Source of the DNA: a virus
Taxonomy: Duplodnaviria > Caudoviricetes
DNA: 25,143 nt
Strand: one strand, 5' to 3'
Virus record (IMG/VR): IMGVR_UViG_3300010361_000037
Span: 1 to 25,143 of that record
Shown here: positions 2,442 to 18,215 of the stretch, in pieces
Position numbering within the stretch: the first letter of the stretch is position 1
How the letters are laid out: each line of letters opens with the position of its first letter
Position numbers and translations under genes: made by a program
Notes under the pieces: model-generated
The model's database searches: none
Seen by the model: the letters and a program-made list of their open reading frames with translations, nothing else
What the model was told of the DNA's origin: nothing

Positions 2442-4382
2442 TCAGTTCTTCTCCAGCTTGGCGAGCCGCCGGTCCAGCTCCTGCACGGCCAGGATCATGT
2501 GAAAGTGAATCTCGTGGTTGTCGAAATCTAGGATCTCGGTCTCGTGTTCATCGGTCTCGCGCAGCTTGCCTCGGTGTGAAGGTACGCATCCCGGCAGGAT
2601 TTTCTTCAACTCTTCCACGATCACCGAGACCACCTTCGTTCCTGCGGGCGTACCGTTCAGGCCGTTGTACTGTGCTTCCACCGGCACGATCTGTTTGATG
2701 ATTGGAAGCCCGCCTTCAAGTGGCTTTACGTTTTGTTTTAAGCGGCTGTCGGAGGAGATGATCCAACCGTTGGAGTTAGGCTTGGCCGCACTGTCGCTTT
2801 GCAGGTGAAGCAGGTACGAGGGACTCATTCCAAGGCCGACATTGCCTGTGTAGAAAATGAAGCTTGAAGCCTGAAATTGGAGGGGCAGCCACGCAGTGTT
2901 AGGCGCGTTAAGAACATTAATATAGCCGTAGCCGTTATAGCCCATATATATTCTGTCGCCGCCGGAGGCACTAGCGATAGTAATAGCAGTGGTTCCAATT
3001 ACTTCTAGGGTACCGCGCGGACTCGTCGTCATAATGCCGACGCTACCACCGCTGGTCAAAACCATCTGCGGAGTCCCGTTTGACGGATTGATTGATGCAC
3101 CGAAGGTTAGTTGGCCGATGGCAACACCAATCCCGTAGGCTGCGCCCGAGCCGTTATCCCAGGTGGCGATCTTTACCGGAGCTATGGTCTGCGCGGTGCT
3201 CAACGACAGGCCGGCACTGATGGTCGTCTGGCCGATGATCACTCCGTTGTTGGTGATGCGCATACGTTCGGCGGGTGTGGGTTGTCCGGTGAAGAATTCA
3301 ATCTCACCACCGGCACCCGAGGCTGTCGTGACCTCGAACTTTATCTGGCTGCGAAGTATTCCGCCATCGTTGAACTGAATCATGGCGGCATTCCCGTAGG
3401 CGGCCCCATTGTTTCCCAACTCCAAGACGGGCCCGACAGCGCCGCTGGCAGCCTTATACAACGTCAATATTTGCCCCGGGCTCGTGGTTCCGATGCCGAC
3501 GTTGCCCGCTGCGCTGATATACAGCCGTGCCGTAGTGTTGGCGGAGTCGAACGCATTTCCTCCCTGCGCATTACTCTGGTTGATGGTGAAATCGCCAAGG
3601 TTCCAGTAGTTCGAGGAGAGCGCCCAGTTCCGCGATGCAGTACTGGCGTAGGTGTTGTACAGGCCCAAGCCAACTCCGGTTCCGCTCGTGCTTAAAATGG
3701 CCGTCGGAGTGTTGCTCACGGTCATCCTTACATCGAGAAGCGCTCCCGGGCTCGCCGTCCCGATGCCGACGTTGCCCGCCCCGGTGATGATCATGGAAGA
3801 GTGGCTGGTCGCGCTCCCGGCCGCCGTGGTGAAGAACTGGATATAGCCTTCGGTCGAGGCGGTAGTCCAGGCGGTGTTGGTATTGAAGGCGATCTGGCAG
3901 GGCGCGACCCAGCCGCTGCCGCTATAGCCGTAGGCGACGATATTGAGGAACTGATCGCTGGCTCCGGTTGCCAGCGGTGCGGCCATGGTGCCGCGCGCGC
4001 TGTAGCCGAGAAGCTGCAGGCCGAGGCTCGGATTGGACGCAGACCCGGAATAGGAGTCGCCGCGAATCGTGGCCCAGGCGCCGGAGGCGGAGTTGTAGTC
4101 GGCGGCCACGCGCAGGGTCGGATTGAGATTGTTCTTGTAGACCGCAAGGTCGTAGAGCGGAGTCGAGGTGCCGATCCCCAGCCGATTATTGGTGTTGTCC
4201 CAGAACAGATTGGCGCTAGCCCCGAGCGCGCCCGCGTTGTTCCACTGCACCTGGCCGGTGGCGCCGGCCGCGATCGGGCTCCCCGCCGTCGTGACCCACT
4301 TGGTGCCGTCCCACTTGTAGACCACGCTGCCGTTAGTGACGGTCTGGTTCAAGGTCGGGGTGTTGGGAAAGTCGAACGGCAT
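2442..4382 (-). CDS. Tail fibre protein with C-terminal peptidase S74 intramolecular chaperone
   Basis: Repeated GNVGIGTxSP units; SSDSRLKQNV autocleavage motif; terminal coiled coil LAVQELDRRLAKLE. Confidence 0.9.
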   Translation of the reverse strand: MPFDFPNTPTLNQTVTNGSVVYKWDGTKWVTTAGSPIAAGATGQVQWNNAGALGASANLFWDNTNNRLGIGTSTPLYDLAVYKNNLNPTLRVAADYNSASGAWATIRGDSYSGSASNPSLGLQLLGYSARGTMAAPLATGASDQFLNIVAYGYSGSGWVAPCQIAFNTNTAWTTASTEGYIQFFTTAAGSATSHSSMIITGAGNVGIGTASPGALLDVRMTVSNTPTAILSTSGTGVGLGLYNTYASTASRNWALSSNYWNLGDFTINQSNAQGGNAFDSANTTARLYISAAGNVGIGTTSPGQILTLYKAASGAVGPVLELGNNGAAYGNAAMIQFNDGGILRSQIKFEVTTASGAGGEIEFFTGQPTPAERMRITNNGVIIGQTTISAGLSLSTAQTIAPVKIATWDNGSGAAYGIGVAIGQLTFGASINPSNGTPQMVLTSGGSVGIMTTSPRGTLEVIGTTAITIASASGGDRIYMGYNGYGYINVLNAPNTAWLPLQFQASSFIFYTGNVGLGMSPSYLLHLQSDSAAKPNSNGWIISSDSRLKQNVKPLEGGLPIIKQIVPVEAQYNGLNGTPAGTKVVSVIVEELKKILPGCVPSHRGKLRETDEHETEILDFDNHEIHFHMILAVQELDRRLAKLEKN

Positions 4383-4384
4383 AG

Positions 4385-6436
4385 TTAGTTGCTCTCCAGC
4401 TTCTTGGCCAGCTGCTGCACGGCCAGGATCAGGTGAAAGAGGATCTCGTGGGAGTTGAAATCGTCGATCTCGACTTCTTCTCTGTCCTCTCTGCGGAGCC
4501 TGCCTCGATGCGTTGGCACGCAGTGCGGCAGGATCTTCTTCAGTTCCTGGGTAATCACGCTGACCACGCGCAGACCTTTGGGTGTTTCGTTCAGGCCGTT
4601 GTACTCTGCCTCGACGGGGCGGATCTGGTTGATGATCGGAAGCCCGCCCTCCAGCGGCCGTACGTTCTGCTTCAAGCGGACATCGCTGGCAATCGTCCAG
4701 GTGTTGGTGGAGGGCTTCGCGGCAGAATCGGCACCGACATGGAGATAGTAACTGGGACCTGTATTAGCAATACCAACGAGACCACTTGGTGAAACTGTAA
4801 GACGAGCCGCACCAGCCGTGGCATCATAAATGTTAAAATTACCCGGCCCGATCCCGCTACTGCCGGATGAAGAGAATAGAACCCATTGCCTTCCACTGGT
4901 GCCGGTATTTTCTAGGCGTATCCCCAGATCTGAGGCATTCGAGGTTAGCCTCAGAACACCCTGACCGCCTCCGGCTCCAGCACTTCCGCTAATATCAAGC
5001 GGATAACTCGGGCTCGTGGTCCCGATGCCCACCAGGCCTGCGACCGTTAGGACCATCTGTGCCGCGCCATTATTTGTGTAGAACTGCAGCGGATGGTTTG
5101 TGATACTGCCGAACGCTACCTTACCGGCATCGGCATACAAGGCTCCCTGCGCTGTGTTCATCCATAAGATCTGTCCGTTGGCTCCCGTGCCGCGAACATC
5201 CAACAGCGCTGCGGGACTCGTGGTCCCGATACCGACGCTGCCGGTCGGGTCAACCACCATCTTGATTGTCGGCTGCGTGGTATTATCGTCCGCGCTCTTG
5301 GTCATGAAGGCGACGGCTCCGCGCTGGCCTCCCGAACCTTGCGCGGGAAATCCAACAGCCGCGCCGGGAATGGGATTAGTGGAATAGAATCCGCCGACAC
5401 GCGAGTAGTTCGCCGCGCCAACCCCATCGATAGGAGCACCGTCCGTTCTGCCCTCGATTCCGCCGAAATTGGGGCTGGTTCCAGCCTGGAAAACAACCTG
5501 CGGACTCGCCGTCCCGATTCCCATCCGGAAATTGGTATTGTCCCAAAACAGGTTAGCACTGGCCCCGAATATACCGGCGTTGTTGAACTGCACCTGGCCG
5601 CTAGAGCCTGCCGGAGAAACAGCCGGCTGCTGATTGACCGTGATTACCCACTGCGAAGAAGTCGGGTCCGTGTACCAGACGTACAACTGTGTCCCGGCGG
5701 AATCGAACCAGAGCTGGCCGTTAGTGGGGGAGGCGGGGGCGGTGTCGCTGACGGTGACCCCGGGAGGGGGGGCCGGGGGCGCGACCCAGGTGGCGTCCTC
5801 GCGCAAGAATCTGGTGGTCCCAGCAGTCGCACCGGGATCGGGGACAATACCGATGGAATGGGCGGCACCGCTCGCCCCCATGGGGATGGCCGAAAGCGTG
5901 ACGTTAGCCGACAGCGGTCCGCCTCCCGCCAGCCCGCTTCCGGCGATGATCTGGGTGGAGATGGAGGGGTAGAAAGCGCTGTAGTCGTTGGCCTGCGCGA
6001 CTACCGCCCCCACTCTGCCGAAGACGCTGGCCAGGGCCACGCTGATGGTGCCGTCGCCAGTCACGCTCACGTTACTGCCGATCTTGACTCCGCCCAATTG
6101 CGTGGCCGTGGCCGGGATGGCCAGCCCCGCCGGCCCCTGCGGCCCCTGCAGCCCGGGAGGGCCCTGCGGCCCGGCGGGCCCGGGGGGTCCGGGGGCGCCG
6201 CTCACTCCGGGGATTCCGGACGGCCCCTGCGGTCCCGGCGGCCCGGGAGGCCCGGGGATACCCGCCGCCAGCTGAGCGCTGAACGCGTCCGGAGAGACCG
6301 TGCCGGTAAGTGCAGCCGAGGTCAGCGAACCCGAGAGCGCGGGCGGCTGCATGGCGCCGGTGAGCGAAGCCGAAGAAAGCGAGGCCGAGAGCGAGGGGGC
6401 CTGGAGCGAAGCGCTGAAGGGATTCTGCGGGGTCAT
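4385..6436 (-). CDS. Tail fibre protein with collagen-like segment and C-terminal S74 chaperone
   Basis: G-X-Y run ([13 protein letters not shown]...), [29 protein letters not shown] repeats, [10 protein letters not shown]. Confidence 0.9.
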
Positions 6437-8264: not shown

Positions 8265-8464
8265 TTCGTCTCCTCGTCTCTTATCGGTTCAGGGTCCTCG
8301 ACGAACTGGATCTTGCTGAAGGCCTCCCTCAAGGCCTCGAACTCTTCCTCCGCCCGCACCCGGAAGGTGCCGCACAAAGCGAAGGTGCGGTCGGGGGCCT
8401 GGGCGATGAACAGCGCGCACCAGACATGCTTGCCGTTCTTGCGGTAGCGGACCTTGAAGGTCAT
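8261..8464 (-). CDS. Hypothetical protein (67 aa)
   Basis: GAGG SD; ATGA overlaps at both ends. Confidence 0.75.
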   Translation of the reverse strand: MTFKVRYRKNGKHVWCALFIAQAPDRTFALCGTFRVRAEEEFEALREAFSKIQFVEDPEPIRDEETK

Positions 8465-10203
8465 TGGACGTGTTCCTCTTTTCCGTCTTTGCGGTTGGGG
8501 TTGAGGGTCTGGGTGTTGGCGTAGGTGCCATGGTCGGTCCTGACCACATGGCCCGAATCGCAGAGCGCATTCAGCAGACGGTGGGTGCCAGAGATCGCCT
8601 TGCGCAGCTGCTGCGCGATCTTGCTGACCTTCATCGGGCCCTGGTCGCGCAGCAGCTCCAGGATGTCTTTGCGCGCCTCGCTCTGCGTGATCTCGTCGCC
8701 TTCGCCGGTAATAGTCCAGGCGGCGTCCTGGATGCGTTTGAGGCCGAAGACGTTGTCGGCCACTTCGCGTCCGGTCACCGAAAGCATGGCTTCCCCTTCG
8801 GGGGTGCGCTTGAGCACCCAGACCGCGTCCGCCGCCGCCGTGGTGCCGCTGGTGCCCTGGATGCTGTCGAGGAACTCTCCGGCGGCCTTGCGGGTGTGGG
8901 CCACCAGCACCAGTGCGAGCGAGTGCTTCTCGCCCAGCTCGCGCAGCGTAGTGACGATGTTGTAGTCGGCCTGCATGGCGTCCAGGTTGGCGCGCTTGGC
9001 CTGCTTGACGATGGCTAGCAAACTGTCGATGATCAGCACATCCACCGGGCGCGCGGCCAGTTCACTGTCGAGCGTGACCGCCCCGCCCGCCATCAGCGGG
9101 CCCAATTCGAACAGGAAGCGCAGCTTGACCAGCTTGCGTTTGTCCTGGGCCAGGCGGCGCAGGCGGTAGCGGATCTGCCGCTCCCTGTCCTCGAGCGAGA
9201 CGTAGAGCACGCGGCAGGTTTTTTTGGCCTCCAGATACTGGGCCAGCTTTTCCTGGTTGGCCACCGCGATCGCCAGCTGCAGGGCGAGCCAGCTCTTGCC
9301 TACCTTGGGACGCCCGCCCAGAATGGTCAGCCCCGGGTAGAGAATGGGTTCGACGATCGGCTCCGGGTCCGGGTAGTCGGCATCATAGATGGCGGTCGCC
9401 TCCTTGGTCTCGGGCGGCTTGGCTTTGGGCGCGGGGCGCGGAGCGGCCGCATAGCGCCGGCTGATATCGGCGGCCAGCTTTTCGATGTGGGCGCGCGGGC
9501 CCGGCTCCTCGCACCGCTTCTCGTTGACCTCCCACAATGCCGCCAGGATCTCGGCTTCACTGCAGCCCTTATTCCGCATGGCGCAGCCCATCTTGAACAG
9601 GGTGGAATGCTGTTTGCCCTTGGGGATGCGCGCGGGCAGGTTGAAGGGCTCGCCCGAGTGGTGGTTGGCCACCGCCCTTAGCTCGACCATCAGCCAGGGA
9701 TTGGCGGGGCTGATGGTTTCCTCCAGGATCGAGCGCCGGGCGGTGTCCCAGACATACGGCTTGCCCGAGGGATGAATCGAGGGCGGCAGGAGCACGTAGC
9801 CACCCTCGCCCTTGATGTCGATCCCCGGCCACACCCCGGTGTGGCAGCCGATTTTGCCCTCCCGGGGCAGCGCCCAGAAATACTGCTTGCCGCCGCCCCC
9901 GGTCATCTGCTGGATGGTGTCGGTGAGCGCGGTGTGGCGTACGACCAGCGCCTCTAGCGACTCATCCCCGCCGTGGCGCGGGTCGATGTCCAGCACCCAG
10001 AACTTCACCCCGGTCGGCACCCCGATGTTGGCGTTGGGATGCTTCCCCCACCACTCGCGGATGATCTGTTCGTCTATGGTGGCGTCTTTGTGCCCGTGCG
10101 CAGAAAGCGGGTTCTTGGCGCGCGGATGAATCGGGAAGACCGGCCAGCCGAGGCGGGCGGCGTAAGCGAGAGCGGCACGGAGCAGGGGATTGCGTTCTTT
10201 CAT
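8461..10203 (-). CDS. Bifunctional primase-polymerase (Prim-Pol) fused to an AAA_25/RepA-type helicase with C-terminal HTH
   Basis: GWPVFP, NANIGVPTG, VLDIDPRHGG, GIDIKGEGGYVLLPPSIH; Walker A GRPKVGKS; VLYVSLED; Walker B VLIIDSL; LVAHTRK. Confidence 0.92.
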   Translation of the reverse strand: MKERNPLLRAALAYAARLGWPVFPIHPRAKNPLSAHGHKDATIDEQIIREWWGKHPNANIGVPTGVKFWVLDIDPRHGGDESLEALVVRHTALTDTIQQMTGGGGKQYFWALPREGKIGCHTGVWPGIDIKGEGGYVLLPPSIHPSGKPYVWDTARRSILEETISPANPWLMVELRAVANHHSGEPFNLPARIPKGKQHSTLFKMGCAMRNKGCSEAEILAALWEVNEKRCEEPGPRAHIEKLAADISRRYAAAPRPAPKAKPPETKEATAIYDADYPDPEPIVEPILYPGLTILGGRPKVGKSWLALQLAIAVANQEKLAQYLEAKKTCRVLYVSLEDRERQIRYRLRRLAQDKRKLVKLRFLFELGPLMAGGAVTLDSELAARPVDVLIIDSLLAIVKQAKRANLDAMQADYNIVTTLRELGEKHSLALVLVAHTRKAAGEFLDSIQGTSGTTAAADAVWVLKRTPEGEAMLSVTGREVADNVFGLKRIQDAAWTITGEGDEITQSEARKDILELLRDQGPMKVSKIAQQLRKAISGTHRLLNALCDSGHVVRTDHGTYANTQTLNPNRKDGKEEHVQ

Positions 10204-10278
10204 CGGGCTTGCCTGGGGGAGGTGCGCGGCGTCTATGGATGGCGGCGTCTATGGGCGCTGCAGAAAGCGGGGCCATGG

Positions 10279-10650
10279 CTAGGGCTCCTCGTAATCGCGC
10301 AGCCACTCTAGCAACGCTTCCACGCGATCCACCAGGGCGGTTTCCAGGCTCCAGTAATGCTTGAGCGAGCGGATCTTTTCCTGCTGCACGTCGCTCGCTT
10401 TTTTCCCGGGGGCTTTGACTTCCAGAAAGAACGCCGGGATGACGTAGTCCGGTATGCCCGGTTCGCCTACCCGGATGCGGGGCGCGCTGCTGCGGCAGGC
10501 TTCGCAGAGCTTGTCCGGATTGGGGAACAGCCCCGATTGCAGCCGGATCGGATAGTAATGCTTGTACTGGAGCAGCTGAATGCAGGCCTTCTCCACGTCG
10601 TTCTCGCTGAGCTGGATGGCCCCGTCGGGGCGCAGGCGGAAGCGTGCCAT
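10279..10650 (-). CDS. VRR-NUC-family nuclease (Holliday junction resolvase-like)
   Basis: SENDVEK...GEPGIPD...FLEVKAPGKKASDVQ. Confidence 0.85.
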   Translation of the reverse strand: MARFRLRPDGAIQLSENDVEKACIQLLQYKHYYPIRLQSGLFPNPDKLCEACRSSAPRIRVGEPGIPDYVIPAFFLEVKAPGKKASDVQQEKIRSLKHYWSLETALVDRVEALLEWLRDYEEP

Positions 10651-10678
10651 TACCAGTCCTCCTCCGGGTCGAGTGGGT

Positions 10679-10924
10679 TTACTCGCCAGGCGGCATTCTT
10701 TCGTTCCGCACCTCGCGCTGATTTATTTTGATCAGCTCCCCATCGTCTGTCCGGCACAGCAGCTGTCCCAAACCAAGCCGGCGCACTAGCGTGAGCCGCG
10801 TACCTTCCTTCAACCGGCGGCCGCCGATCACGATTACCCTGTGGCCGGCCTCCATGACCGGACTCGCACGCAGCCTGGCCTCCAGGCTGTTGATTACGCC
10901 GCTTCGCAGGCCTCGAAATTTCAT
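10679..10924 (-). CDS. Hypothetical protein (81 aa), possibly an SH3-like barrel
   Basis: GGAGG SD before ATG; protein-like composition; nested inside the alternative-frame ORF 10650-10958. Confidence 0.55.
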   Translation of the reverse strand: MKFRGLRSGVINSLEARLRASPVMEAGHRVIVIGGRRLKEGTRLTLVRRLGLGQLLCRTDDGELIKINQREVRNERMPPGE

Positions 10925-10957
10925 TCGTCGTCCTCCCCGGACACAGGTTTCGGTCCA

Positions 10958-11203
10958 TTAGGGCTCCTCGAGCGCGCGCAAAAACGCGCAGTAGGCCTCG
11001 CGATCGTGCCTGCCGAGGCGCTCGAGCGAGATGCCCAGGTGTTCGCAGTGCGTGATCAGGGCGGCCAGTTTGCCCGCGACTTCGGCCGCATAGGCGGAAG
11101 CGGGATGCTCCCCGACCAGGTGCGCCACGTAGCGGTCGCGCAGCCCGCGCGCCAGAGCCCCCCAGACGTGGAACGGGTTGGCCAGCGTGGTCATGTCTGT
11201 CAT
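10958..11203 (-). CDS. Hypothetical protein (81 aa)
   Basis: GGAGG SD and TAATG overlap with the upstream gene set the start at 11203. Confidence 0.7.
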   Translation of the reverse strand: MTDMTTLANPFHVWGALARGLRDRYVAHLVGEHPASAYAAEVAGKLAALITHCEHLGISLERLGRHDREAYCAFLRALEEP

Positions 11204-11577
11204 TACGCCACCTCCAGCTCCTTGCGCAGCTCCTCCAGCACTCCCCGGCAGCCCGGGCAGAGCTGTTCGCGCAGGCCGTCGTCCAGGCGCTGGTACTTCT
11301 TGAACCACTGCCGGGGGACCTTCTCCCCGCAGAAGGCGTGCGTCGGCTCGCCCGCCAGGCGGATGTGGAAGCGCTTGGCGCCCGCCGGATAAGTCAGGGT
11401 CAGCTCCCCCCGGCCCTTAAACACCTCGGGCAGGTATGCCTTCTGGCTCTCCAGATACACGGCCTGCGACTTTCTTTCCATGCATACCGGGCAGATGAGC
11501 GCGGTAATATAGCGGGTCTTGCCCTTCTCCCTGCGCGGCGCCCGGTCCAGGTCGGTCTTGCAGACGGGACAGATCAT
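11203..11577 (-). CDS. Zn-finger protein (124 aa)
   Basis: CPVC...CPVC plus H...HAFCG...CPGC; coupled at both ends. Confidence 0.75.
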   Translation of the reverse strand: MICPVCKTDLDRAPRREKGKTRYITALICPVCMERKSQAVYLESQKAYLPEVFKGRGELTLTYPAGAKRFHIRLAGEPTHAFCGEKVPRQWFKKYQRLDDGLREQLCPGCRGVLEELRKELEVA

Positions 11578-11861
11578 GGCTTCCTTCCGGCTTTGGCGAT
11601 TGTTTTGGGTTTGGCGGCGTTCTGGTGTTCCGCTGTCATGAGACGGATCAGCTTGTCGAACGAGCGGTTGATCAGGTTCTCGTAGTCGCGCAGGAGTACG
11701 CGGTCCTCCTCGGCGACCTTCACGTAATGGGCGTGCGCACTGGCCAGTTCCGCGACCGCGTTGAAAGAGCGCGTGGCCGCTTCCGCCGCGCGGGTTTGGG
11801 CTTCGGCGAGCTGCAACAGCGCCTGCTTGATGTTGTAGCCTGGATCGAGCTGGGGACTCAT
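11574..11861 (-). CDS. Helical hypothetical protein (95 aa)
   Basis: GGAGG SD; ATGA overlaps at both ends. Confidence 0.7.
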   Translation of the reverse strand: MSPQLDPGYNIKQALLQLAEAQTRAAEAATRSFNAVAELASAHAHYVKVAEEDRVLLRDYENLINRSFDKLIRLMTAEHQNAAKPKTIAKAGRKP

Positions 11862-12094
11862 GGCTTCGCCTCCCGGCACTGGTGTCCGTTGCGCTTCACC
11901 CAGCGGCCGCACGGCTTGCAGTAGAATCGGCACGAAGGGCAGGGCACGGCTACGTCGTAGCGCTCTTCATCAATCGTTTCGGGTACCACGCCCAGCCCGC
12001 CGCAGCGGACGCACACGCCGCGCGGAGCGTTGGCGGGCGGGTCGAAAAAATTCCGCCCCCAATGCTTCCCTCCCCACTCCACAAAACGGCTCAT
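11858..12094 (-). CDS. Zn-finger protein (78 aa)
   Basis: CVRCGGLG...CPSC...CKPC...HQC; GGAGGT SD. Confidence 0.75.
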   Translation of the reverse strand: MSRFVEWGGKHWGRNFFDPPANAPRGVCVRCGGLGVVPETIDEERYDVAVPCPSCRFYCKPCGRWVKRNGHQCREAKP

Positions 12095-13545
12095 GGCGCC
12101 ACCTCCGCAAAATGGGGAAATTGGGGAAATGCGGCGGAATCCGAGTAACTAAAAATGCCTTTGTGAACTTCTGTAACTCTATAACTTATTTGCTGCGAGT
12201 AAGTTCCACGATTCCACGTCGCGCTCTTCATATCCCTTTGTTTGCCATAATTTGCAGAAAAAATTCCGGAAATTTGGGGAAATTGGGGAAACGGTGCTAA
12301 AATGCCGAGATGCCGAACACACTCACCCTGCTGCGCCGTCACCGGCCCGCCTGCCAAGCCGGGCGCCCCGCCGACTCCTACTCCACCGAAGCCGAGGAAC
12401 GCCGCCATAATTTCGCCAAATGCCGCTGCAAGATCTACGCCCACGGCACCTTGAGCGGGGTCTTCAAGAAATTCGCGACCGGGGCCCGCGACTGGGACCG
12501 CGCCCGCGAAGCCGTCGCCCCCTATCTTCAGGCCGGACGCTGGGACCTCCCCGGGGACCCGCCTCCACCTCCGGCTCCGGCTCCCGCTCCCGCCGCCAGC
12601 GGGCTGGCCATCGCCGATGCCGTCCAGGCCTCGCTGGCAGCTCACGCCGCCGAGGGGGACGCGCCTAACACGGTCAAGAAATACACCGAGGTCCTGGGCC
12701 AGTTCGCCCGTTTCAGCCAGTCGCTCGGCCTGCGCTACCTCCACGAGTGGGATCGGTCGCATGTGCGCCAGCTGATGGCGGACTGGAGAAAACAGGGTAA
12801 CTGCCCGCTCACCGTCACTAAGAAGCTGGGGCTCTTGAAGCCCTTCTTCGAGCCCTATCTGGAGGACGGAATTCTGCTCGAGAACCCGGCCCGCATCCGC
12901 ACCCGCACCAACCGCGCCTCCCGCCTCAAGCAGGCCACCACCCGGCAGGTCAATCCCTTTACCGACGAGGAACTGGCTCGCATGTTCGCCGCCTGCGCCG
13001 CTCTCTCCAGAGGGCAGGTAGTCAGCATCAACCGGCTCCAGAGGGGCGAGGACCTGGCCGACTTCATCCACATCTCCTGCGCGACCGGCCTGCGCATCTC
13101 TGACGTGGCCACCTTCGACATCGCCCGCCTCACCTCTCAGGGCGAGGTCAACCTGCGCGCCACCAAGAACGGCAACTGGGTTAGCGTCTGGATTCCGGAG
13201 TGGCTGCGCGAGCGCATACGCACCCGCGCCGCGCGCGTCGGGCGGCTGATCTTCGGCACCCACTCGACCACCGACCTCAACGTCATCACCGCCTGCTGGC
13301 GCTACAAGCTGAACCGGCTCTGGGCCAAGTGCGGCCCCTGGGAGGAAAAGCCTACGCCGCATCGCTTCCGCCATACCTTCGTGCGCATCCTGCTCGAGCG
13401 CGGGGTGGCGCCGTCCGTGATCGCAGATTTGGCCGGGGATACCGAGCAGATGATCCGCAAACATTATTCCGCCTGGATGCCCGGGCGGCAAGAGCAGACC
13501 AGCCGCATGCTCGAAGAGGCCTTCCGCCATGTGCCGCGCTTCCAT
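12091..13545 (-). CDS. Antisense ORF (484 aa) spanning integrase and attP; translation unproven
   Basis: TAATG overlap with the xis-like stop and ATGA overlap with the next gene; no recognisable domain. Confidence 0.3.
   Translation of the reverse strand: MEARHMAEGLFEHAAGLLLPPGHPGGIMFADHLLGIPGQICDHGRRHPALEQDAHEGMAEAMRRRLFLPGAALGPEPVQLVAPAGGDDVEVGGRVGAEDQPPDARGAGAYALAQPLRNPDANPVAVLGGAQVDLALRGEAGDVEGGHVRDAQAGRAGDVDEVGQVLAPLEPVDADYLPSGESGAGGEHASQFLVGKGIDLPGGGLLEAGGAVGAGADAGRVLEQNSVLQIGLEEGLQEPQLLSDGERAVTLFSPVRHQLAHMRPIPLVEVAQAERLAETGELAQDLGVFLDRVRRVPLGGVSCQRGLDGIGDGQPAGGGSGSRSRRWRRVPGEVPASGLKIGGDGFAGAVPVAGPGREFLEDPAQGAVGVDLAAAFGEIMAAFLGFGGVGVGGAPGLAGGPVTAQQGECVRHLGILAPFPQFPQISGIFSANYGKQRDMKSATWNRGTYSQQISYRVTEVHKGIFSYSDSAAFPQFPHFAEVAP
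12113..12291. other. Candidate attP: arm-type repeats flanking a core-type inverted repeat
   Basis: TGGGGAAA at 12113, 12122, 12275, 12284; AACTTA-N11-TAAGTT at 12183-12205; AT-rich; directly upstream of the integrase. Confidence 0.7.
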
Positions 13546-13554
13546 TACTCGTGA
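12310..13554 (+). CDS. int: Tyrosine recombinase/integrase
   Basis: TGLRISD (Arg), RATKNG (Lys), HRFRH (HxxR), LAGDT..MIRKHY (Tyr); core-binding region NTVKKY; N-terminal Cys/His arm domain with Pro/Ala linker. Confidence 0.95.
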   Translation: MPNTLTLLRRHRPACQAGRPADSYSTEAEERRHNFAKCRCKIYAHGTLSGVFKKFATGARDWDRAREAVAPYLQAGRWDLPGDPPPPPAPAPAPAASGLAIADAVQASLAAHAAEGDAPNTVKKYTEVLGQFARFSQSLGLRYLHEWDRSHVRQLMADWRKQGNCPLTVTKKLGLLKPFFEPYLEDGILLENPARIRTRTNRASRLKQATTRQVNPFTDEELARMFAACAALSRGQVVSINRLQRGEDLADFIHISCATGLRISDVATFDIARLTSQGEVNLRATKNGNWVSVWIPEWLRERIRTRAARVGRLIFGTHSTTDLNVITACWRYKLNRLWAKCGPWEEKPTPHRFRHTFVRILLERGVAPSVIADLAGDTEQMIRKHYSAWMPGRQEQTSRMLEEAFRHVPRFHYS

Positions 13555-13811
13555 CTCCAGGGGTTGGCGGAGCGGCGCATAACCCGCTCCCAGACCGAGC
13601 GCGGCACGCGGATGATCGGCCGGTGGCTGCCCGGGGTGCGCACCAGCTCCACTCCGGGCTCGCTGCGGAAGAGGCGCCGCGCCGTGCCCCGGCTGCAGCG
13701 CATGAGACGCGCGCAGTCGTTGAGCGTAAGGAACTCCTCATCCCACTTTTCCTGGTGGCGCAGCTGCAGCTCCAGCTGGCGAGAGCTGCGTTCCTCCGGG
13801 GTGCGCAGCAT
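13545..13811 (-). CDS. Excisionase-like winged HTH protein
   Basis: FLTLNDCARLMRCSRGTARRLF...IIRVPRS; convergent with and overlapping the integrase. Confidence 0.75.
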   Translation of the reverse strand: MLRTPEERSSRQLELQLRHQEKWDEEFLTLNDCARLMRCSRGTARRLFRSEPGVELVRTPGSHRPIIRVPRSVWERVMRRSANPWSHE

Positions 13812-16094: not shown

Positions 16095-16337
16095 TTATTT
16101 CCTGGCGCTGCGCGGTGCTTCCTGGGTGGGATTGCGCAGCAGCTTCAGGAAGCTGCGGTGGTCGTGCTGGGCGTTGACGATGATGCGGGATAACAGCATT
16201 CCCATGCTGGGATCGCGTATTCCTTCCCGTTTGCCGAAGGCCTTCCGCGCTTCCTCCCAAAGATCTTTTTCTGGGTTTAACAGATATCCGCCGAAGCGCC
16301 TGTATGGCCTGTCCCCGTTTTCATGATTGCCGTGCAT
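16095..16337 (-). CDS. Hypothetical protein (80 aa), possible regulator heading the early operon
   Basis: GAGAGGGGGG SD before ATG 16337; lower GC. Confidence 0.55.
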   Translation of the reverse strand: MHGNHENGDRPYRRFGGYLLNPEKDLWEEARKAFGKREGIRDPSMGMLLSRIIVNAQHDHRSFLKLLRNPTQEAPRSARK

Positions 16338-17660: not shown

Positions 17661-18215
17661 CTACTTTTTTGGCCCTGCCTCGGGCGGATGGGGCGGAGGC
17701 GGAACCACCACCCAGCCCACTCCGCGCCAGAATTGCAAGGTCCATCCCGAATCGCCGATGGGGACGATGGGCGGTCCCTGATCGGGCCTTTCAGGCGGCG
17801 GCGGCGGCGGCGGTTGCGGCCAGATGACGGCGGGCGGTTGAGGCGGCGAAGGCCAGATGCCGGGAGGAGTGCCGGGGGCGGGCGGAGTCGGCCAGACACC
17901 AGGCGGCTGCGGCCAGACGCCGGGGGGCGGCCCGGGCCAGATACCGGGGGGAGTTCCGGGCGGGGGCGGACTGGGCCAGACTCCTACCGGCGGCGGAATG
18001 ATCGGGCCTCCGCCGACAGAGGGCGGCGGGGACGGCCAGACGCCGGGGGGCTGAGTTGGCGGGTAATAGATCGGCGGTGTGACCACTCCGGCCGGAGGCC
18101 AGATGCCGGGAGGAGTGCCGGTGGGCGGGGACGGCCAGATGCCGACCGGCGGGGACGGCCAGATACCGGGCGGCAGGCCACCGCCGACGGGAATAACGAT
18201 GCAGAGTGTTGCCAA
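17661..18215 (-). CDS. Proline-rich PG[IV]WP repeat protein
   Basis: TTG start after AAAGGAG; nine G[IV]WP units plus one VIWP. Confidence 0.75.
   Translation of the reverse strand: MATLCIVIPVGGGLPPGIWPSPPVGIWPSPPTGTPPGIWPPAGVVTPPIYYPPTQPPGVWPSPPPSVGGGPIIPPPVGVWPSPPPPGTPPGIWPGPPPGVWPQPPGVWPTPPAPGTPPGIWPSPPQPPAVIWPQPPPPPPPERPDQGPPIVPIGDSGWTLQFWRGVGWVVVPPPPHPPEAGPKK

Follow-up and report, generated by a model that had tools for sequence, protein, structure and literature searches.

The window, by which is meant the whole stretch of DNA that was analysed, spans an entire virus record of 25,143 bases, a fragment of 25 kb. Its genes were called with our own codon-score script, which may miss or misplace starts, and the features of the integrase locus are collected in Table 1. 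The tyrosine integrase gene (int) is inverted relative to the early genes on either side of it. The catalytic set is present, with the invariant columns R262, K286, H351, R354 and Y386 in addition to the Pfam match, and homologues of the integrase occur in Acidobacteriota. At 75 homologue loci (one of them a duplicate), xis-like homologues are convergent with int. On the opposite strand runs an open reading frame, here called the bridge, which is in register with int for 412 codons and continues for 72 codons past the int start, across an att gap of 216 nt (45% GC) that contains both direct-repeat clusters. The original prediction had described a minus-strand ORF of 484 codons, joined by TAATG to the xis stop and by ATGA to the gene starting at 12094, and this description was confirmed.

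Table 1. Features of the window at and around the integrase locus
Feature	Position	Strand	Remarks
Bridge ORF	12091..13545	-	484 codons, in register with int; no Pfam/PHROG family match for its product
Tyrosine integrase (int)	12310..13554	+	414 aa; Pfam Phage_integrase E 4e-10, PHROG 1 E 3e-31
xis-like small HTH protein	13545..13811	-	weak HTH_17 match; stop overlaps bridge start (TAATG)
First gene behind att	11858..12094	-	78 aa, CxxC motifs; ATGA overlap with bridge stop; homologues after att in L321 and L300
Left direct-repeat cluster	12104..12138	.	likely arm-type Int sites of attP, from position and like repeats in relatives
Candidate attP centre, AT-rich	12139..12264	.	without tRNA match; crossover point of the window not located
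Right cluster, same direct repeats	12265..12300	.	likely arm-type sites
Extended -10 promoter-like site	12295..12303	+	6 nt before int ATG, within bridge; like sites at the same place in several relatives
Predicted hairpin burying Shine-Dalgarno and start of 12094-11858	12060..12129	-	partly formed by left repeats; opening energy 15.4 kcal/mol, z 2.5 vs flank shuffles
Terminator-like hairpin and U-tract in bridge	12473..12491	-	region count 7 vs 6.5 in shuffles; not a conserved site
Coupled small-gene chain (11861, 11577 Zn-finger-like, 11203, 10958) ending in VRR-NUC-like nuclease (10650-10279)	10279..11861	-	junctions and family labels
Prim-Pol/AAA_25 primase-helicase	8461..10203	-	preceding 75-nt gap unbridged
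First early-operon gene	16095..16337	-	possible ribbon-helix-helix regulator (lead only): MetJ cluster, feature score 0.93; no Pfam/PHROG match

Matches to VRR-NUC are weak for the nuclease of the window (Pfam E 0.028, PHROG 93 E 2e-4); its homologues give stronger ones, down to E 4e-12. Within the same chain, the minus-strand ORF at 10650-10958 (102 codons, low GC3 of 0.52) is coupled at both ends and is possibly a second small bridge; a different frame within it holds an ORF of 81 codons that has a Shine-Dalgarno sequence of its own. Elsewhere in the window, a tandem pair of tail-fibre genes, both encoding a Peptidase_S74 chaperone domain, occupies 2442-6436 on the early strand, opposite the terminase gene, and an unannotated, repeated Pro/Gly-rich stretch with ORFs on both strands occupies 17700-18215.

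Conservation of the antisense frame in close relatives

A single-protein scan of viral contigs with the window int gave no match, and the homologues came from alignment-based scans. The integrase-alignment scans yielded 124 intact int homologues besides that of the window, 12 of them without an in-register antisense stop; the three close homologues with a GC3 of 0.85 or more were all open. Six distinct phage contigs (L001, L005, L006, L007, L008 and L009) encode integrases that are 37-60% identical to that of the window. A single bridge ORF of 479-526 codons is present in the window and these six relatives, in which it crosses int and 70-90 codons of att gap. In the seven phages the bridge starts at -1, +2 or +5 from the xis stop. 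It ends in ATGA in five of them (the window, L005, L006, L008 and L009), and 7 nt (L007) or 32 nt (L001) into the next gene in the other two. The gene next to the bridge varies, being VRR-NUC-like, Zn-finger-like, PHROG 18407 or unknown. Five of the six relatives are complete circular genomes, all with a VRR-NUC-like nuclease and a primase/helicase behind att.

Related phages had been proposed as a check on the frame, and in these six it is open with coupled ends despite their divergence. Stops in relatives had been named as grounds for abandoning the idea; they are absent from close relatives with the same layout and present in relatives with other layouts and in most genomic islands. The viral kin of the same clade with other layouts (L002 and L026, with a terminase cassette, L004 and L010) have stops and no bridge, and most genomic islands carry stops in the antisense frame.

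Distant integrases and a prediction fixed beforehand

A scan anchored on VRR-NUC genes, in which the antisense frame was not used for selection, gave 56 loci. An inverted tyrosine int was found at 12 of these (10 distinct phages), and all 12 were open from within the last 30 int codons through the int start and for 49-354 codons further. Five of the VRR-NUC-anchored loci have integrases only 21-26% identical to that of the window and represent a second integrase group. The frame is a single leg in L325 and three coupled legs in L321 and L323, while L331, L333 and L371 require a last leg with its own Shine-Dalgarno sequence 73 nt before the stop of the long ORF, an arrangement that would fit a local promoter too. 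In the att regions of L331, L333, L371 and L373, a Shine-Dalgarno-led start lies exactly 73 nt before the stop of the preceding leg. The codons for the conserved int His-Tyr residues (at about 13464 in the window) yield an in-frame antisense ATG or GTG, where the relay restarts in the second integrase group.

A prediction was fixed beforehand and the second integrase group was used in a further scan, which returned 13 loci, 7 of them new (two of these near-copies). As predicted, the new ints were open from the catalytic His-Tyr to the start in 7/7, and 45 or more further codons were open in five of the six assessable new loci; L373 stops 9 codons past the int start. The predicted absence of bridges in other layouts failed for L377, which has a single leg of 497 codons. 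L378 has two legs and L374 three, the middle one running for 1,084 codons over four opposite-strand genes in one register. Extra opposite-strand genes were in the int register in 8/8 cases (L374, L368, L323 and L333; two loci with homologous genes), and one frame was stop-free over the last 150 nt of the att region in all nine second-group regions.

The loci are kin. On a 34-row tree the bridged label changes 5 times, so that the observations represent a handful of independent lineages and not 19. Among 55 unrelated phage integrases that were scored, five have an inside-opposite layout by our own gene caller and only one of these is open (L031), indicating that the trait is not general there. 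L031 is a different phage with a like layout, in which the frame is open 60 codons past the int start and the next start follows 24 nt on; L034 was ambiguous for a bridge.

Other integrases in the same slot

L300, closely related to the window (75% identity at one gene), has an unrelated int in the sense direction and a coupled ORF of 91 codons over the att gap. This short bridge ends on the same downstream gene as that of the window (null P 0.135). A sense serine recombinase lies upstream of the VRR-NUC gene in 27 further loci (57/109 long ORFs scanned), and its stop overlaps a start codon in 27/27, compared to 47/117 for other genes before gaps of more than 40 nt. The overlaps in these loci (L312-L352) are ATGA in 16, GTGA in 10 and TTGA in one. 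A hairpin with a U-tract follows the serine recombinase in 16/27, a count without a null, and short ORFs often run through it. Furthermore, 26 of the 27 serine recombinases end in Ala, mostly VA or AA, which could equally be a degradation tag. L317, with a sense tyrosine int before VRR-NUC, has no bridge.

Chance or selection

TTA, CTA and TCA codons, whose use had been suggested as a check, are absent among the 57 Leu and Ser codons of the window int (GC3 0.85); at the rate of these codons in the other genes of the window a 400-codon antisense frame would be open by chance with a P of 0.083. The YqaJ gene of the window (317 codons) is also fully open antisense, and 5.6% of shuffles leave the att segment open. 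Taken alone, therefore, the bridge ORF of the window is suggestive and could still be due to chance (about 0.08 x 0.06). Chance is excluded because the relatives keep the frame open. When int was recoded by phage-wide codon use and the gap was shuffled for the 8 one-leg loci, a one-leg bridge arose in 1/1,600 trials. Other genes of 300 or more codons in these phages were open in 6/69 cases, none of them longer than 345 codons. Three bridged ints have a GC3 of only 0.70-0.72 and are still open, where about 4 stops are expected, and the att gaps are open in the bridge frame at 39-48% GC while their remaining frames contain stops. A Fisher test of coupled start against open frame (10/0/3/61) gave p 4e-10, a value that is overstated by kinship and omits 50 loci without a detected xis. 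Together these comparisons leave little doubt that the open, coupled frame is under selection.

A proposed translation relay

The reading that we favour, with somewhat better than even confidence, is that the antisense ORF serves as a translation relay to the genes behind att and would be cut by integration. Ribosomes leaving xis would restart on the bridge and translate it across the inverted int and attP, up to the hand-over at the first gene behind att. Continuous translation may shield the early transcript from termination or decay over 1.3-3.5 kb of otherwise untranslated antisense RNA, and the ribosomes terminating at the end of the bridge may unfold the structure over the start of that gene.

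Untranslated operon RNA is liable to Rho-dependent termination, and Rho prefers C-rich loading sites. The likely hosts are Acidobacteriota, and Rho was present in 5/5 genomes tested. The early strand over the window int has 359 C and 474 G, unlike a Rho loading site; because it is G-rich, cryptic terminators and RNA decay are candidates as well as Rho. No conserved terminator was found within the tyrosine-type bridges, and no antiterminator among 30 early proteins scanned, a subset of the genes. Opening the start region after att takes more energy than in controls, with a median of 15.4 kcal/mol (n=13) compared to 9.5 kcal/mol (n=107; p 3e-5). Much of this difference comes from local composition, and with flank shuffles as the reference it is modest overall (median z about 0.5, p 0.02).

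Integration, the attachment core and the genes behind it

The att gap of L001 holds 27 nt identical to the 3' end of a host tRNA-Ser(GGA), at codon 463 of the 526-codon bridge. In the host register past that core, a stop follows one codon later in 9/12 loci holding the core. The crossover was located in L001 only, with a tRNA-like sequence in L300; in the window the repeats and the gap lie inside the ORF. The suggestion that attP is inside the ORF is thus borne out by the L001 core, and for the window it extends to the repeats and the gap, where no crossover was located. With the crossover inside the ORF, integration would separate the bridge start from the hand-over. In a prophage these two would lie at opposite ends, so that expression of the genes behind att would have to await excision; this would be a second lock in addition to a repressor.

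L178, an island at tRNA-Ser(GGA) in a Bryobacteraceae genome, shows the expected cut form at the one end that was seen. The islands L178 (GC3 0.66), L114 and L213 are at tRNA-Ser and have open, coupled antisense frames; 25 further island-type int loci all have stops, except two copies of L178. A search for prophage forms in samples of 401 genomes each returned no close int and no VRR-NUC match, no att junction was seen in sequencing run X1, from which the window may derive, and no GenBank phage matched the L005 int.

In the window and in G001-G005, att separates the promoter side from replication genes that run in the same direction. It had been proposed that recombination disconnects the Zn-finger, VRR-NUC and Prim-Pol/helicase genes from the early promoter. 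This would apply as far as the nuclease, where the coupled chain ends, and fits less well beyond it: the primase gene is uncoupled from the chain in 4/6 (the window, G002, G003 and G004), and L377 is bridged with only one small gene and no replication genes behind att. The chain end and L377 indicate that the rule concerns access to whichever gene follows att, rather than to replication genes in particular. The gap before the primase gene contains a 13-nt direct repeat in the window (10204-10278) and hairpins in G002 and G004 (L259 17092-17201 and L263 17270-17416), and is a candidate origin, operator or terminator.

HTH_3 repressor-type genes are present in 4/5 complete bridged phages and, in 3/5, lie opposite the early operon and are cI-like. 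The window has no HTH_3 repressor at that slot, and the statement that no cI-like repressor is visible in it agrees with the scan of its proteins, which covers a 25-kb fragment. Since such genes occur in three of the five complete relatives, integration is unlikely to be the only switch, and the idea of integration as the sole off-switch for replication, which the original prediction had favoured, now appears improbable. In G004 the first early gene (L263:12068-12547) encodes a PAS-domain protein and no HTH_3 was found. G001, G002 and G004 have a second tyrosine recombinase elsewhere (L259:8211-9179, with homologues at L257:8043-8966 and L264:10536-11453).

Alternative explanations

The possibility was considered that translation mainly drives the early transcript through the int promoter and silences the opposite cassette during lytic growth, by collision or antisense pairing, the supply of downstream genes being secondary. 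Promoter-like sites on the int strand numbered 14 in 19 att gaps, against 4.2 expected, many of them an extended -10 about 6 nt before the ATG, which places the int promoter within the bridge. Such a site was seen in the window (12295-12312), L006, L007, L008, L009, L377 and L378, and the int mRNA is likely leaderless. Bridged L377 with its single small gene behind att, and the integrated islands L178, L114 and L213 with open, coupled frames, also fit silencing. However, silencing does not need a stop placed on the next start, yet this is so in most loci although the next genes differ. Moreover, L300 and the serine-integrase kin have coupled ORFs and no antisense gene to silence. Silencing as the main role is therefore judged unlikely; it is compatible with a relay and the two are not exclusive.

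Alternatively, the genes downstream might be served by a promoter inside att and a short leader ORF, in which case only the last leg would matter and the long stretch open over int would be inherited or incidental. Short Shine-Dalgarno-led ORFs do begin in the att of L331, L333, L371, L373 and L374, and early-strand promoter-like sites were found in the same scan of 19 gaps. These sites numbered only five, however, against 4.5 expected by chance, and stood at differing places, which argues against a separate promoter in att. A promoter left of the attP core had been named as a finding that would speak against the antisense ORF as a switch, and the gaps have no early-strand excess of that kind. 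An att promoter would also leave unexplained the open frames over int, the extra genes in register and the coupled xis start, and we give this alternative a low probability.

Still less probable is that the ORF encodes a working protein and that integration exchanges its C-terminus, in the manner of integration-dependent immunity. The similar length of the ORF in seven phages and the att core inside it would be consistent with such a protein, as would the slightly higher fourfold-site identity of bridged int pairs over genomic-island pairs. This excess vanished against genes of the same phages: in a comparison of 7 int pairs with 53 other gene pairs in three identity bands, excess identity at fourfold sites, which are near saturation and could hide weak selection, was 0.19-0.20 for int and 0.21-0.23 for the other genes. 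The bridge proteins are 25-46% identical, as expected for a shadow of int, and their att-encoded tails match only at the DNA repeats. No conserved residues were found beyond the int shadow, and the bridge C-termini differ among the seven phages. The protein had no homologue among 7,999 candidates and no family match in Pfam or PHROG, and its model had a pLDDT of 27, which is weak evidence as the alignment held 7 sequences. In a sibling contig (low depth, errors possible), five of five changed gap codons altered the residue and none became a stop. The bridges vary between 91 and 1,084 codons, and several phages have theirs divided into legs. This variable length, the splitting into legs and the unselected residues suggest that translation is the selected trait. 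It is quite probable, on these sequence comparisons, that translation rather than a product is what is selected, and any protein made is likely a by-product.

Finally, a mere GC-rich shadow, where open antisense frames in register are frequent and any second codon beginning with A produces ATGA, would suit the GC3 of the window int, the open YqaJ gene, the three open close homologues of equally high GC3 and the coupling in L114 and L213, which may stem from a double stop, but it is largely refuted by the frames open at GC3 0.70-0.72 and over AT-richer gaps, the recoding null and the prediction that held for new ints, and is scarcely credible.

Significance and comparison with known systems

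Where GC-rich genomes contain long antisense ORFs, these are usually set aside as shadows, or it is debated whether they encode hidden proteins. A translation relay offers a third, testable answer, that the frame is selected and the protein is not, with a genomic signature that can be scanned for: an open frame, coupled ends and neighbours in register. The tolerance of an operon for untranslated RNA could be tested on it directly, and a prophage would have a possible means to withhold nuclease and replication genes until excised. Codon use in integrases and the design of attP would be under a further, hidden constraint. A broader proposal, to which we give even weight for and against, is that there is a class of bridge ORFs without a functional product, by which phages can accommodate inverted cassettes in a translation-dependent early operon, with int codons, att and gene spacing locked by selection in one open register for up to 1,084 codons. 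Recombination in the bridge would then be a translation-level switch that enforces excision before expression behind att, and the coupled ORFs that pass through hairpins after serine integrases would be a miniature of the same device. The literature searched, mostly open-access journals, yielded no account of an ORF without a product that bridges an inverted integrase.

Recombination inside an open reading frame has precedents. In the Mx8 and SSV1 type, attP is inside int and integration rewrites the ORF at att; here int stays intact and the ORF that would be cut is on the other strand. In Tn916, transcripts reportedly read across the attachment site once the element is circular (Celli and Trieu-Cuot 1998). 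The likeness is that att recombination joins or separates an upstream promoter and the replication or transfer genes. Tn916 is a conjugative element said to rely on transcript read-through, whereas here a coupled ORF spans an inverted integrase.

The embedded antisense ORFs of prokaryotes are long in-register frames, which the genetic code explains in part and for which protein function is asked (PMC7457138). The bridges differ from these in that the frame and the junctions are conserved and the residues are not. Translational coupling through ATGA and TAATG overlaps in operons, in which translation of the upstream ORF supports the next, is known from earlier work (PMC2174442). The junction types are the same, with a stop-start overlap or near-overlap at both bridge ends; unlike the coupled genes described there, the bridge extends over 440-1,084 codons, antisense to up to four genes and att, and its product has no apparent function.

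Integration-dependent immunity in the mycobacteriophages BPs, Brujita and Charlie, where attP is in the repressor ORF, on the same strand as int and with no xis, and the repressor protein is itself the effector (PMC3694055), shares with the present locus an attP inside an ORF that is cut by integration, so that the regulatory state would change. In contrast to those phages, the bridge is antisense to int, an xis-like gene is present, the product is apparently unselected and has no HTH repressor match, and the seven bridge C-termini differ and hold no conserved degradation tag.
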